From: Candidatus Latescibacterota bacterium
GTDB lineage: Bacteria; Latescibacterota; UBA2968; GCA-2709665
NCBI GenBank assembly: GCA_965203805.1
Contig: OZ241917.1
Location: forward strand, 2,880,001-2,944,000
Direction: 5' to 3'
DNA length: 64,000 nucleotides
The notes beneath the pieces are model-generated. The model made no database searches, was not told the origin of the DNA, and saw only the letters and a program-made list of their open reading frames with translations. The position numbers and the translations under genes were made by a program. Every line of letters starts with the position of its first letter. Position 1 is the stretch's first letter. Shown piece after piece: positions 152 through 23,868 of the stretch.

Positions 152-1417
152 ATGCCTCAACTCACATTTGATCGGCTGCTTGACGCCGTCGCAGGCGGCG
201 CTGTAGCGTTGCGGTCCCGCATGACGTTACAACCTGCGGGTGGCGAAGGAGACAAGGTTTTCCCGCCAACTTATGCGGTTGACGGACGTCCCGAGCACAA
301 GTACGCCGTTGAAGAGCGCCAGGTCGGCGAAGGCGACAAGACAACCACTACAGTCCTGTTGGACTCCGTGGCGTCGCAAGCGAACCGGGCGGAGTTGGCT
401 CTGTTGGAAGGGTGGGAGCGAGATGAGCTTTCTTTCCCCGTTCCCTACGTGGATTTCTCAGAGGACGGCGGCGCTACTGACTACGACAAGCTGACCGTGC
501 TGGAAGCACCACACCGACTGGCGGATGCGATCTTTCGCGACAGCTTATTGGATGGAACGTTGTTCCGGCTGTCGGATATCGGACAGGCCATTACCGACGC
601 AACACCGCGCAACGCCATCGACCTGTTCCGCTATTCTCCCACCTCACTGCTGTTCGGTATGTGGGATTCCACCGGACCGAAGGGCGGGCTCGGATCGAAG
701 TTCCAGCGGGCTTACGTCTCCGAGATCGTCGGTTTCGATGCCGCTGTCGGCAAGAAGGTTGGAAGCCGGATCGATCCTCTCCAGATCGAAAAGGTTGCAA
801 CAGAGGATCCAGATGACCGGGTGTTCAACAGCTCTGACCCAGTTGAAGTGTGGACGACGGATCCTGATGCTGCTGAAAGGAATAACAAGGGTGAGGTCGT
901 TTATGCCTCGCGCAAAAAAGATGCACCAGGCAATCCAGGGCAGCCGTCCAAGATTAACCACGGCAACATCCCCCCTTCGATAGATGCCCAGGCAGGCGGC
1001 GTTACCATCTCCAAAGCCGCGCAGACCACTGTCATTTCTTTTGCAGCACTTCGTCGGCTGCGTTTCAAGGGATTCAGCAGGAAGGCCGAAACGGCCGCTC
1101 GCACCGCAGTCTCCGGGCTGGGCGTCGCTGCAATTGCCTATCAGTACGAAAACGACTTGGACCTGCGTTCCCGATGCCTGCTGCTCCCGACGCATCCGCC
1201 GCGCCTCGAATTATTGAGCCGCGACGGTTCTGCTGGCGAAGTTGTGGAGTTGGACAGAAGCGCGGCTACTGAGATCCTGTCCTCGGCGGCAGCGCACGCG
1301 GCGGAGAATGGAATCGGTTGGGAAACGGGTGACATTCGCCTTACCCCCGCACCGAAACTGATCGAACTGATTCGTCGCAGCCACAAGCTATCGGAAACTG
1401 AACAAACTTCGGAGTAA
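152..1417 (+). CDS. csb1: Type I-G Cascade backbone Csb1 (Cas7 family), operon A
   Basis: Motifs [65 protein letters not shown]. Confidence 0.93.
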
Positions 1418-3111
1418 TGAAGATGTCTGCCGCCGAGAGATTCTGCATCGAGGTGAACTTTCTGACGGGCCGGTACGTGGCCACGTTCCACTCCGACCGC
1501 CAGCGTTCGGAGTGGCCGCCGCACCCTGCGCGTCTGTTTTCGGCACTCGTGGCGACATGGGCCGACGCCGACGAACCTGATGTAACCGAGCGTGATGCCC
1601 TGGAATGGCTCGAAGCCCAGGGGCCGCCCGCGATCGCCGCGTCTGAATCCGTGCCGCGCAGTGTGGTTTCACATTTTGTGCCGGTGAACGACGCATCCAT
1701 CGTAGGCGGGGCTTGGCAGGCTAGAAAGGCCAAAACAATCACTGGATTGCTGGATCAACTGGATGAAGAGCTTATCTCTTCGCATGGTGAGATCACGAGG
1801 AAGGTGTCGCGGATAAAGGATAGATTGGCCAGACAACGGGACGTCGAAACCCAGATCAGTCGCACGGGTAACACGAACCCGTCTTCTGCCGTGACGATGC
1901 TGCCTGACCATCGGGGCAAGCAGGAGCGGTTCTTCCCGTCCGTCACTCCCCACGACGCCCGTGTAACATATCTCTGGGACGCCGCCGCCCCAGAAGCAGT
2001 ATGCGAAACTATAGACCAGCTACTCAGTAGGGTCACCAGGCTTGGCCACCCATCATCTTTGGTATCGTGCAGGGTGACCATGGGGTCGCCTGCCGCCACT
2101 CATGCGCCAAGCGATGTCGGACAAAGTTTGCGGACCGTAAGGCGTGGTCAACTCGCCGAGCTTGAGCGGCAGTACGTCCGCCACGAAGGCGTCAAGCCTC
2201 GGTCCCTGCCTTACACAGACGTTCGTTACAATGCCACTGCAGAGACCGTGCAGCCGGAGCCAACACTGCAACCCAACACCTCCGGTGAGTGGATCGTCTT
2301 CGAGTTCGCTCACAACTCTCGCTCCTTCCCGGCCACCCGAACCGTGGACTTGGCTACTGCAATGCGAGGAGCCGTTCTCAATTACGCCGAAGATCCGATC
2401 CCCGAAGGGCTCAGCGGTCACAGGCCGGATGGAAGACCGACGTACGATCCGCATGTGTCATTCCTGCCCCTTCCCTACGTCGGCTCGGAGTATGCAGACG
2501 GCCGTTTGCTCGGTTTGGCGCTGTCGATGCCCAGGTCGCTGGGAGATGACGTGCGTCGCGCGGTGTTCCGCGCAATCGGAAGATGGGAGCAGGAGGCTCC
2601 GCAACACCCCTACCCCCTGAGACTCACTTTAGGATCTCAAGGCGTAGTCCACATGACTAGACTGCGTGGACATGCGGACTTGGCCGCCTTGCGACCGAGC
2701 ATTTGGAATCGTCCTTCGATCCGATGGGTTTCGGCGACACCCATCGCCCTGCCCAGACATCCTGGCAGCCTGAGCGAGGGGACCGCCGCTGCTCGTGCAA
2801 AGGCTTGGAAGTCGGCCGAAACTGGGGTGGCAACTGCCTGCGGGCATGTCGGGTTGCCGGAACCCTTGTCGGTCGAGGTTGCGCTTAACCCGTTCATCGT
2901 CGGGGCCAAGCCAGCCAAGCGCTTCCCGTCGTTCAGCCAGAATGGGAAGGAGGGCAAACCGGTCAGACGCCAACTCGTTCACGCGTCATTGACATTCGAA
3001 CATACCGTAGAGGGACCGCTGATGCTTGGGGCGGGTCGGTTCATGGGGCTGGGACTGATGCGCCCGATGCCGGAATTTGGCGATTCCTCTGAAGGCCGGA
3101 CCGATGAGTGA
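1417..3111 (+). CDS. csb2: Type I-G Csb2 (Cas5-Cas6 fusion), operon A
   Basis: N-terminal [22 protein letters not shown]-terminal Cas6 glycine loop [23 protein letters not shown] coupling to csb1. Confidence 0.93.
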
Positions 3112-21599: not shown

Positions 21600-21778
21600 A
21601 AGCGAGCGGCGAGGCGATGAATATATCCCGGAGGATGCTCGCGTTGTTTAATGGCAATGTTTACAATTACTTAAACAAAGGAGGCATCTATGAAGGATCC
21701 GCACTCCGGCATCTGGAAGGTGGCTGCTCGCAACCGCGATGGCAAGTTGTTGAAAATAAGCAGTGTAGGGTAGGCGCT
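21600..21778 (+). promoter_or_regulatory. CRISPR leader with IHF-like site
   Basis: AT-rich stretch before repeat 1; CAAGTTGTTGAAA (21743-21755) reversed is TTTCAACAACTTG, one mismatch from WATCAANNNNTTR. Confidence 0.7.
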
Positions 21779-23868
21779 ATTTCCGCGATCATCTGATCGC
21801 GGCCTCATTGAAGCTACGATTGCGTCCATTGCGGCCCCCTTGTATCGGGTTATTTCCGCGATCATCTGATCGCGGCCTCATTGAAGCCTTACACTGGAGG
21901 TATCGCATGGAGCGAACACTTGCCCATTTCCGCGATCATCTGATCGCGGCCTCATTGAAGCCGTGTATTACGATCCGGACAGCGGCGAGCTGGTTCCCCA
22001 TTTCCGCGATCATCTGATCGCGGCCTCATTGAAGCTGCGCGATTTTCGGGCAAAATCGACCTGGCGACCAGATTTCCGCGATCATCTGATCGCGGCCTCA
22101 TTGAAGCTGTAAAGCCCTTAAAGCTGTGTTAATTTCTTCTTCAGCAGATTTCCGCGATCATCTGATCGCGGCCTCATTGAAGCTTTCTGAGGCGGACGCC
22201 AGGCTTGTGGCGCGGGTCCATATTTCCGCGATCATCTGATCGCGGCCTCATTGAAGCCCCGTCGAACGCCAGCCGCCAGAATCCGGCCATCATCGGATTT
22301 CCGCGATCATCTGATCGCGGCCTCATTGAAGCGCCATACCCCGCAGCGGATTTACCCCGGCGGGGATATATTTCCGCGATCATCTGATCGCGGCCTCATT
22401 GAAGCGTGCTCGCTACCGCGATGTCAATCGTTGCGCCCTGCATTTCCGCGATCATCTGATCGCGGCCTCATTGAAGCATGGCGTTGTAGGACAGGTCATA
22501 CTCGGGCGGCAAGGCCATTTCCGCGATCATCTGATCGCGGCCTCATTGAAGCAAAAGCCCCAGGGCGAGGGGAACGCCCCAGGGCTTGATTTCCGCGATC
22601 ATCTGATCGCGGCCTCATTGAAGCAAAAGCCCCAGGGCGAGGGGAACGCCCCAGGGCTTGATTTCCGCGATCATCTGATCGCGGCCTCATTGAAGCGGGA
22701 CCGATTCGAACATTCAGGGCACGATCGTTGCCCTGATTTCCGCGATCATCTGATCGCGGCCTCATTGAAGCCATTCGTCACGTGGACGTTCAGGGCGCCT
22801 TGCTGCGACATTTCCGCGATCATCTGATCGCGGCCTCATTGAAGCAGGGGTTCGGCGCAGTCGATGCTGTTGGCTTCGTGCGTATTTCCGCGATCATCTG
22901 ATCGCGGCCTCATTGAAGCTTTGCGGCGGCTAGCCAGGCGATACGGCCGAATATGTATTTCCGCGATCATCTGATCGCGGCCTCATTGAAGCCACTGAGA
23001 TGATTTCATCCATCGCTATCCTCCTGCCATTTCCGCGATCATCTGATCGCGGCCTCATTGAAGCTGATGACCTTTCGGGAATGGATGACTTTTCTGGTGA
23101 TATTTCCGCGATCATCTGATCGCGGCCTCATTGAAGCGTCTGGTGCCCGAAGTACCGCAAAAAGGTTCTGGCCGGATTTCCGCGATCATCTGATCGCGGC
23201 CTCATTGAAGCTGAATAATGGTAGAAAGAATCTATGCAGACTTCTAGGATTTCCGCGATCATCTGATCGCGGCCTCATTGAAGCGTTCCAACAAAAGCTT
23301 GTAGAGAAGAGCCTCCTAAAATTTCCGCGATCATCTGATCGCGGCCTCATTGAAGCCACCTTCCGGCCGTTTGCGTTTCGGGCAAATCGGCGCATTTCCG
23401 CGATCATCTGATCGCGGCCTCATTGAAGCTTCTCGAGGGCGTTGAGTTTGATCAGCGGCTGCACGTGATTTCCGCGATCATCTGATCGCGGCCTCATTGA
23501 AGCAAGTAACAAGACAAGGGAAGCCAACCAACACACAAAGGATTTCCGCGATCATCTGATCGCGGCCTCATTGAAGCTCACCAAACCGCGCAATGGAAAG
23601 AATAAACGTCCGTTATTTCCGCGATCATCTGATCGCGGCCTCATTGAAGCTCACCAAACCGCGCAATGGAAAGAATAAACGTCCGTTATTTCCGCGATCA
23701 TCTGATCGCGGCCTCATTGAAGCTCCTGGCGAACCGCACCGAGGACCGCGCCGTCGCGAAATTTCCGCGATCATCTGATCGCGGCCTCATTGAAGCGAAA
23801 AATTCCTCTACCTCATCTGTTCTGCCAGTAGAATTTCCGCGATCATCTGATCGCGGCCTCATTGAAGC
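21779..23868 (+). CRISPR. Type I-G CRISPR array, 29 repeats of 36 bp and 28 spacers of 36-40 bp (26 unique)
   Basis: Repeat ATTTCCGCGATCATCTGATCGCGGCCTCATTGAAGC with stem CCGCGATCA/TGATCGCGG; spacers 11=12 and 25=26. Confidence 0.99.

Follow-up and report, generated by a model that had tools for sequence, protein, structure and literature searches.

Two type I-G CRISPR effector sets beside one adaptation module and one array that they may share

Can two effector complexes of one CRISPR subtype read the same spacer memory? The question is raised by a 64,000-nucleotide (nt) stretch of a Candidatus Latescibacterota bacterium genome (contig OZ241917.1, positions 2,880,001 to 2,944,000 of the forward strand; hereafter the window, numbered from its first letter). 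It contains two intact type I-G effector sets, A and B, with all genes on the plus strand and in different orders, followed by one set of adaptation genes and one array. We favour the reading that the Cascades of both sets load CRISPR RNAs (crRNAs) from this single array, and put its probability at roughly 55%. The effector genes, with lengths in amino acids (aa), are as follows.

152-1417, plus strand: set A csb1 (Cas7g), 421 aa; PF09617, E 3.7e-51; TIGR02570, 73.8 bits.
1417-3111, plus strand: set A csb2, a Cas5-Cas6 fusion and crRNA-processing nuclease, 564 aa; TIGR02165, 311.2 bits.
3077-5893, plus strand: set A cas3g, a helicase with a C-terminal HD nuclease, 938 aa; TIGR02621, 765.5 bits.
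5890-6819, plus strand: set A Csb3-like short large subunit, 309 aa; NF049934, 293.6 bits.
9360-12209, plus strand: set B cas3g, 949 aa; TIGR02621, 603.2 bits; start codon uncertain.
12209-13099, plus strand: set B Cas8g2-like short large subunit, 296 aa; TIGR04106, 119.8 bits.
13050-14168, plus strand: set B csb1 (Cas7g), 372 aa; TIGR02570, 143.1 bits; start uncertain, family match from residue 40.
14177-16378, plus strand: set B csb2, 733 aa; TIGR02165, 363.1 bits in two stretches; extra C-terminal Cas6-like region.

Csb2 (the I-G signature), Cas3g and Csb1/Cas7g of both sets all score above their family cut-offs, which in bits are 45 for TIGR02165, 400 for TIGR02621, 38 for TIGR02570, 65 for NF049934, 125 for TIGR04106, 560 for NF049935 and 150 for TIGR04113. 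Between the sets, identity is 31% for Cas7, 26% for Csb2 and 33% for Cas3. The Cas3 alignment shows both proteins with Walker A, DExH and HD motifs, the HD domain lying at about residues 744-929 in A and 793-927 in B. The second Cas6-like region of the set B Csb2 shows up as an extra BLASTP segment that pairs residues 433-548 of A with 636-723 of B. When columns conserved at 95% or more were defined on alignments with 32 to 65 relatives per protein, set A kept 640 of 642 of them (csb1 157/158, csb2 135/135, cas3g 269/270) and set B kept 384 of 393 (cas3g 170/172, csb1 74/75, csb2 106/109). Two C-terminal histidines of Csb2, H477 and H522 in A and H430 and H469 in B, are conserved in 100 of 101 sequences, and the glycine-rich C-terminal loop of the Cas6-like domain is kept in 100 or 101 of the 101, both window proteins included; one of the two histidines may correspond to the catalytic one, which is H503 in Thioalkalivibrio sulfidiphilus and H520 in Bifidobacterium animalis. 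Comparison of set A with its counterpart in a sister genome (locus L012, described below) gave ratios of nonsynonymous to synonymous divergence (dN/dS) of 0.16-0.29, with csb1 at 0.18, which indicates that set A is under purifying selection. Judged by the conserved residues, both sets look functional. As an observation in its own right, the set A cas3 (3077-5893) has a dS of 0.064 to L012, against 0.17-0.39 for csb1, csb2 and csb3, which hints at recent gene conversion or exchange within the operon.

The initial annotation had described two full csb1/csb2/cas3/csb3 sets. Its gene count, common strand and intact motifs are borne out, but the fourth genes differ in family, and the naming of both as csb3 was rejected: one is NF049934 Csb3-like, the other TIGR04106 Cas8g2-like. 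That of set A follows cas3g directly, its start codon overlapping the cas3 stop, and matches NF049934 ('type I-G CRISPR-associated protein, Cas3-extension family') at full length (1-298 of 299). That of set B matches TIGR04106 with an E-value of 1.6e-34 over profile positions 2-269 of 282, at a score slightly below the cut-off of 125. Pairwise comparison of the two proteins gave no significant sequence similarity, and a profile-profile alignment of their families with hhalign was weak (probability 1-4%, E 0.011-0.041), with three collinear motifs aligned. At the same time, AlphaFold2 models of the two proteins (mean predicted local distance difference test, pLDDT, 84.9 for A and 81.1 for B, from alignments of 27 and 26 sequences) both align with the same 649-residue chain of the type I-G effector structure 8b2x, which we infer to be Cas8g from its length and the paper's description. 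For set A the match has a VIA-align Z of 16.9 and a root-mean-square deviation (rmsd) of 3.8 over 253 residues (chain 9-380; Foldseek E 1.2e-5), and for set B a Z of 9.6 and an rmsd of 4.3 over 213 residues (chain 9-381), the next unrelated structural row for B having a Z of 3.8. The second-best structure for both models is chain C of 7tr6, a type I-A Cascade (Z 9.8 and 7.7), and the remaining structures score far lower than these two. Sequence searches of PDB chains with the set B Csb2 and both fourth genes returned no match, so the relation of the fourth genes to 8b2x is seen by fold alone. Taken by fold, and with weak profile similarity, the two fourth genes appear to be homologous members of one large-subunit superfamily.

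In the published structure, Cas8g consists of an N-terminal alpha/beta domain that contacts Cas7.1 and Cas7.2 and a C-terminal Cas11-like helical domain; that report compares the N-terminal domain with Cas8a2 and describes three size variants of the large subunit, of which Cas8g1 is the largest (PMC9638904). On their models, both window proteins would be short large subunits with no Cas11-like domain.

Downstream of both sets lie the genes for adaptation and the array.

19439-19729, plus strand: cas2; PF09827, E 5e-19; TIGR01573, 34.1 bits; the sole I-G cas2.
19747-21552, plus strand: cas4g/cas1g fusion (cas4/1); NF049935, 734.7 bits; sole copy.
21553-21778, plus strand: leader of 226 bp, from the end of cas4/1 to the array; the portion nearest the repeats is kept in the sister locus.
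21779-23868, plus strand: CRISPR array, its 36-nt repeat present in 29 identical copies (0 expected by chance), with 28 spacers that are 36-40 nt long.

The repeat occurs 29 times in the whole single-contig genome of 5.87 Mb, all 29 within the array, and tblastn found no other I-G cas1 or cas2 and no other csb1 or csb2 relative in the genome. The count of one cas2, one cas4/1 and one array that had been made within the window is thus correct, and the rest of the genome adds no further I-G copy. Twenty-six of the 28 spacers are unique, spacer 11 being identical to 12 and spacer 25 to 26. Such tandem duplicates are present in both sister arrays (window 22553-22660 and 23578-23687; spacers 8 and 9 in the sister genome G055), and repeated spacers have been reported for Bifidobacterium I-G arrays (PMC12915315).

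For the repeat, a hairpin of 8 bp and a 4-nt loop is predicted (-13.8 kcal/mol), after which come CCTC and an 8-nt tail, ATTGAAGC. Csb2 is described as binding the hairpin and cleaving 4 nt 3' of its base, which leaves an 8-nt handle (PMC9638904), and the window repeat, as read from its letters, fits this published I-G cut site. BLAST of the array against 50,697 phage records gave no match, and the genome holds no full-length self-target; since no protospacer was found, a PAM (protospacer-adjacent motif) could not be inferred. A single Cas4/1 would set the PAM at acquisition, and both complexes would then have to accept that PAM for the spacers to be useful to them.

If two kinds of Csb2 are to cut one repeat, it matters whether relatives of A and B use similar repeats elsewhere. 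We gathered 54 distinct repeats: the window's own, 38 from loci with A-type sets and 15 from loci with B-type sets. They align without gaps, and columns 25 and 28-35 (C..CATTGAAG) are invariant. The hairpin stands in one register: the paired share of cells is 86.6%, where shuffles give 54.7% (none of 500 reached the observed value) and slid controls at most 58.6%, and each of its 8 pairs has undergone compensatory changes, on both sides. The window repeat is at best 31/36 identical to an A-linked and 30/36 to a B-linked repeat (medians 21.5 and 22), no nearer to one group than to the other. A- and B-type relatives share one repeat architecture. The B-type repeats come from relatives of the set B csb1, found in 65 metagenome loci, of which the 40 of at least 5 kb were scanned: 33 of these 40 have cas3, cas8g, csb1 and csb2 (about 730 aa) in that order, cas4/1, mostly with cas2, follows csb2 where the contig is long enough, and 15 of the 40 carry a 36-nt repeat array of the same family. 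In a quick maximum-likelihood tree of Cas4/1, whose deep long-branch joins we left unused, A-linked and B-linked proteins are interleaved, with 7 label changes required, which means that adaptation modules and effector variants have often been recombined.

To which of the two sets, then, do the adaptation genes and the array belong? An assignment of the array to operon B is overturned by synteny. The relevant features between and behind the sets are these.

6873-7001, plus strand: first copy of the 129-nt direct repeat D3 (identity to the second copy 81%), at the left border of a 9.46-kb segment.
7002-9359: filler between the sets, with duplicated gene fragments, small open reading frames (ORFs) and internal repeats D1, D2, D4 and D5.
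16331-16459, plus strand: second D3 copy, where the set B segment has its right border; overlaps the start of a 70-aa ORF.

Window 64-7022 corresponds to L012 4188-11123 at 92.8% nucleotide identity. Past csb3, L012 is contiguous with homologues of window 16335-16648 and 16798-19294 (so that 16335-19294 continues L012 10976-13797), and it holds a single D3 copy that is contiguous with both flanks. In a further relative, L013, the end of csb3 is joined directly to the homologue of window 17020-17337. Because both relatives are without the segment and D3 borders it, the set B segment is an indel relative to L012 and L013, and its insertion by recombination at the D3 linker is the most economical reading. 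By these junctions, the conserved core consists of set A, an AAA/PD-(D/E)XK gene (described below), cas2, cas4/1 and the array, set B being a lineage-specific insert. The filler had no Pfam or NCBIfam match and no repeat remnant, and tblastn found no cas2 or cas4/1 in it. The 70-aa ORF (16385-16597) begins inside D3, after the set B csb2, with a truncated copy (6927-7010) after csb3; an ORF of this kind after csb3 occurs in three other loci only (L012 11027-11235, L032 and L034).

The sister, a same-genus genome (G055, probably the same as G001; loci L012 and L143), has filled the same place differently. Its set A is 88-97% identical to that of the window, its cas2 99% and its cas4/1 95%, and its array has 18 repeats, all identical to the window repeat. 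Its set A is followed by two AAA genes and by a remnant of cas2, 22 codons long. Next stands a second set, of csb1 (424 aa), csb2 (786 aa), cas3g and Cas8g1/Csx17 (755 aa; TIGR04113, 155 bits), and a third, of csb1 (402 aa), csb2 (492 aa), cas3g (990 aa) and a Csb3-like gene (368 aa; NF049934, 199.5 bits). After the third set come AAA genes, then cas2, cas4/1 and the array. All three sister sets have full-length ORFs with family scores above the cut-offs, and the second and third are flanked by a 2.79-kb direct repeat whose copies are 89.8% identical. The two arrays have no spacer in common (0 of 17 against 28), so spacers have turned over in both lineages since they split. Different extra cassettes at different break points, D3 in the window and the 2.79-kb repeat in the sister, mean repeated gain and not a single accident. 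The place between set A and the adaptation genes thus seems to serve for the exchange of cassettes, and the two sister genomes together connect a single repeat with all three variants of the large subunit.

A search of species-representative genomes for relatives of the set A fourth gene yielded 66 loci, at identities from 48% to 88%. In 35 of the 66 the layout assigned by our script is the usual csb1-csb2-cas3-csb3-cas4/1-cas2-array; 6 have a divergent cas4/1 upstream of csb1, and 4 (L013, L021, L025 and L037) have cas2 and then cas4/1 downstream. The script's figure of 18 A-type loci without cas4/1 is an upper bound, its classes undercounting cas4/1 on short contigs or below the length threshold (L046, for example, has both cas4/1 and cas2). 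The cas2 and cas4/1 of L013, L021, L025 and L037 are 73-85% identical to those of the window, all others 40-50%, and in the Cas4/1 tree these four and the window form a fully supported clade of five. In L021, L025 and L037 a complete A-type set adjoins the adaptation genes, without B-type genes; in L013 a truncated cas3 and csb3 remain of the A set. A second set or its remains is present in 3 of the 66 A-type loci. L017 (Vicinamibacterales) has A- and B-type sets with a single I-G-type cas4/1 in the genome, its A csb1 split by an IS110-family transposase, and in L019 csb2 fragments are all that remains of a B-type set. Within the phylum, tandem effector stacks occur in 2 of 168 genomes, namely those of the window and its sister, and Cas3g scores above its cut-off in 27 of the 168.

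Hosts of the Csb3-type cassette (L012-L077) belong to at least eight phyla and include Latescibacterota, Acidobacteriota, Chloroflexota, Pseudomonadota, Actinomycetota, Thermodesulfobacteriota, Verrucomicrobiota and a Nitrosopumilaceae archaeon (L041, at 62% protein identity). Sponge-associated communities are indicated by the titles of many of the records and by one run label, and the distribution suggests that the Csb3-type cassette has spread widely by horizontal transfer within one habitat.

How might two effectors use one array? The following scheme draws on two biochemical studies of I-G systems. Cas4/1 and Cas2 would add spacers to the single array, and the pre-crRNA would be cut 4 nt past the hairpin by the Csb2 of either A or B, giving the 8-nt ATTGAAGC handle. 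Each Csb2 would stay on the hairpin and nucleate the Cas7 backbone and short large subunit of its own set, and each complex would recruit its own Cas3g. Two Cascades would thus read one memory, their greatest difference lying in the subunit that is thought to face target DNA. Set B would have entered as an effector-only cassette, between set A and the adaptation genes, by recombination at the linker. In B. animalis, Csb1, Csb2 and Csb3 form a crRNA complex (bioRxiv 10.1101/2022.08.19.504415). That one spacer library may feed two Cascades, as had been proposed from the window alone, is partly and indirectly supported: the sets are intact, each has its own Csb2, the repeat architecture of their relatives is the same, and in the sister species the same adaptation module and an identical repeat stand behind three effector sets.

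The region before set A bears on the alternatives to this reading and begins with a mobile element.

1-66, plus strand: right end of an IS1380-family element, the whole of which spans about -1623 to +66, with a plus-strand transposase (NF033539, 385 bits).

It was inserted 86 bp upstream of the set A csb1 start codon and is absent at the L012 site. Three further genomic copies (357002, 1739438 and 2766971) are 99.94-100% identical to it, and older copies 88-90%; the near-identical copies mean that the element was recently active. Short-read contigs break at its end, at 64-67. A 63-aa ORF (L009 about 16171-16362; window about -1830 to -1640) has 95% conservation at the DNA level in L012; there it is contiguous with csb1, and here the element separates the two. 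Our guess from its sequence is that it may encode a small DNA-binding regulator of the operon. Farther upstream of position 1 are toxin-antitoxin-like small genes and two more copies of an AAA/PDDEXK_9 gene. About 2.5 kb upstream, on the minus strand (L009 15388-15496; window about -2612 to -2504), the family of the window repeat has left two decayed copies with 36 nt between them, in which GGCCTCATTGNAG is matched twice (0.00 expected); both end in GGCCTCATTG(A/C)AG, and one retains a 7-bp hairpin. The same remnant is present in L012 (about 3700-3800), so it is old and predates the species split; set A probably once had a divergent array, of which this would be the tail. The initial annotation had called for a look upstream of position 1 for another array or cas1, and a separate array with a different repeat would have told against its reading; what lies there is the IS1380 element and the two decayed repeats, with no working array and no cas1. 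Remnants of a second cas1 or cas2 were sought by tblastn in the 2.5-kb gap and upstream, and none was found. Promoter and terminator consensus scans of the IS/csb1 junction and of 6700-24200 gave no excess over shuffles and are uninformative on expression.

A trivial explanation of the tandem arrangement would be an assembly artefact that fuses loci of two separate strains or organisms. The genome is probably metagenome-assembled, with a contamination estimate of 9.3%, and the region is repeat-rich. Short-read contigs of four public runs, which may be the assembly's source data, were nevertheless mapped to window 1-20000, and they bridge the joints: one contig of 8,918 nt covers 3729-12646, from the set A cas3 to the set B large subunit, with zero differences, so the two sets are physically linked, and other contigs bridge 5848-7358, 7527-12646 and 14200-17796, again with zero differences. 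In a run of another study (X4, labelled sponge metagenome), short pieces with identities of at least 95% cover each of the 30 bins, and the same flanks recur in the sister genome. The chimera against which the initial annotation had warned is therefore not seen, and we regard an artefact as extremely improbable. Set A could also be the orphan of a separate system whose own array has decayed, with set B owning the array and A either functionless or independent of it. The degenerate repeats upstream, on the opposite strand and shared with L012, fit such a history, as do the six A-type loci with a divergent cas4/1 upstream of csb1. But it is set A that is conserved with cas2, cas4/1 and the array between the sisters, and set B that is not; complete A sets stand alone beside the same adaptation lineage in L021, L025 and L037; and the remnant predates the species split, yet set A has stayed under purifying selection. 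An orphaned set A is thus an unlikely explanation, if a less remote one than misassembly.

A stronger contender is that the locus is a snapshot of effector turnover, with only one set active and its partner either recently silenced or still to be expressed: the IS1380 element may have knocked down set A, or set B may be newly arrived and idle, and stacking would then be a transient by-product of the frequent recombination of a defence island. Several observations that weigh against shared use of the array point this way. The IS1380 element, its recent activity marked by near-identical copies, sits 86 bp from csb1 and cuts set A off from the small gene upstream; the insertion is probably recent, and intact ORFs would be compatible with a recent silencing of set A. 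Other double loci have one broken set, as in L017, with its A csb1 split by IS110, and L019, with its B-type csb2 fragments. Tandem stacks are rare in the phylum and among A-type loci, and duplicated gene fragments crowd the flanks. Hairpin stems differ between loci, and recognition of one repeat by both Csb2 proteins is a plausible conjecture. On the other side, nearly all family-conserved residues are kept in both sets, and the three sister sets are full-length and above the cut-offs. The sister lineages gained different cassettes at different break points, which speaks for repeated gain. The IS transposase, moreover, points towards set A, so that read-through or an outward promoter could drive the operon. 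Outward promoters are known for IS1380-family elements. We consider turnover possible, in either of its variants, and clearly less probable than joint use of the single array by both Cascades. Whether stacking is also adaptive, with I-G cassettes of different large-subunit variants (Csb3-like, Cas8g2 and Cas8g1) as interchangeable modules that are exchanged at shared linkers beside a fixed core, and with one memory read in parallel by several Cascades, is a separate matter; we consider it possible but less likely than not.

Between the effector and adaptation genes of the window stands one further gene.

17743-19290, plus strand: AAA-ATPase_like and PDDEXK_9 gene; PF09820, E 7e-60; PF08011, E 1e-21.

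It is one of four paralogues, 74-78% identical (the others at L009 4470-6020 and 8839-10392 and at genome position about 110295-111824). A gene of this kind lies between I-G effector and adaptation genes in L012/L143, L013, L016, L027 and L028, relatives from other taxonomic orders among them, with four tandem copies in L013. Its read depth in metagenome runs is in 7- to 50-fold excess, so it is multi-copy in the community; it may be mobile, or else an accessory of I-G systems. Window 6819-9360 and L009 from about 10800 to 16000 are a patchwork of duplicated pieces without a family match. One duplicated fragment (7668-7953, frameshifted, and 8376-8672) resembles what we take to be the C-terminal end of a DNA methyltransferase, and a small ORF with an LTPYEI(D/K)LL motif occurs at least five times around the locus (for example at 7471-7604 and 9236-9369). 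The only other CRISPR locus of the genome, found by k-mer scan, lies at a distance of 480 kb and is of the I-B type, unrelated to the I-G locus; its 37-nt repeat occurs 65 times (genome 2399064-2403847; L011 220-8476), and it has cas4, cas2, cas3, cas5 and cas7 (Cst2/DevR), a cas1 found by tblastn, and two unassigned ORFs at the cas8 and cas6 positions.

If stacking is adaptive in this way, and Cascades with different DNA-facing subunits do read the array in parallel, the cell would gain tolerance to PAM-escape mutants and to variant-specific anti-CRISPR proteins, in a dense, probably sponge-associated community where cassettes cross phyla. Type I-G is described as the least understood type I subtype, the reading of the PAM by the large subunit and its three sizes being unexplained (PMC9638904). 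The two sister genomes amount to a natural swap experiment, with the same repeat and near-identical Cas4/1 and Cas2 combined with different Cascades. The locus thereby makes testable which subunit sets PAM and seed rules, whether Csb2 proteins of 26% identity both accept one repeat, and whether redundancy helps against anti-CRISPRs, and effector-module shuffling within one subtype becomes visible at the resolution of recombination joints. For genome editing with compact I-G systems, cassettes may prove interchangeable on one guide array.

How does this arrangement compare with known systems? A narrow literature search found no description of tandem complete cassettes of a single subtype, each with its own nuclease and Cas3, beside one adaptation module, and none of such recombination joints together with a sister genome that carries other cassettes in the slot. 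Each set alone is an ordinary member of a described I-G variant, A of the Csb3 type and B of the Geobacter type. Set B has the same gene order and the same GSU-named families as the I-G system of Geobacter sulfurreducens (formerly I-U; Cas8g2; GSU0051-0054), but it is without adaptation genes or an array of its own, is embedded in another I-G locus, and has a TIGR04106 score just under the cut-off. For Bifidobacterium animalis subsp. lactis, the reports describe a Cas4-Cas1 fusion, 36-nt repeats, a 5'-TAT PAM and, like set A with its Csb3-like subunit, a three-protein Csb1-Csb2-Csb3 Cascade with no large Cas8 (bioRxiv 10.1101/2022.08.19.504415; PMC12915315); the window differs in having cas2 and then cas4/1, placed after a second effector set. 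Against the structurally characterised system of T. sulfidiphilus (Cas8g1/Csx17; 8b2x and 8ane), to whose 8b2x chain both fourth-gene models align at about residues 9-380, the window proteins are short, about 300 aa, and predicted to be without the Cas11-like domain, while a true Cas8g1 set sits in the sister genome.

The nearest parallel for shared crRNAs is Pyrococcus furiosus, whose complexes belong to different subtypes or types and where one stand-alone Cas6 processes for all. In that organism the Csa, Cst and Cmr complexes coexist with shared crRNAs of one repeat type (PMC4436667, PMC4666368). Unlike those complexes, the modules of the window are of one subtype and stand in tandem in one locus, each with its own nuclease and its own Cas3.

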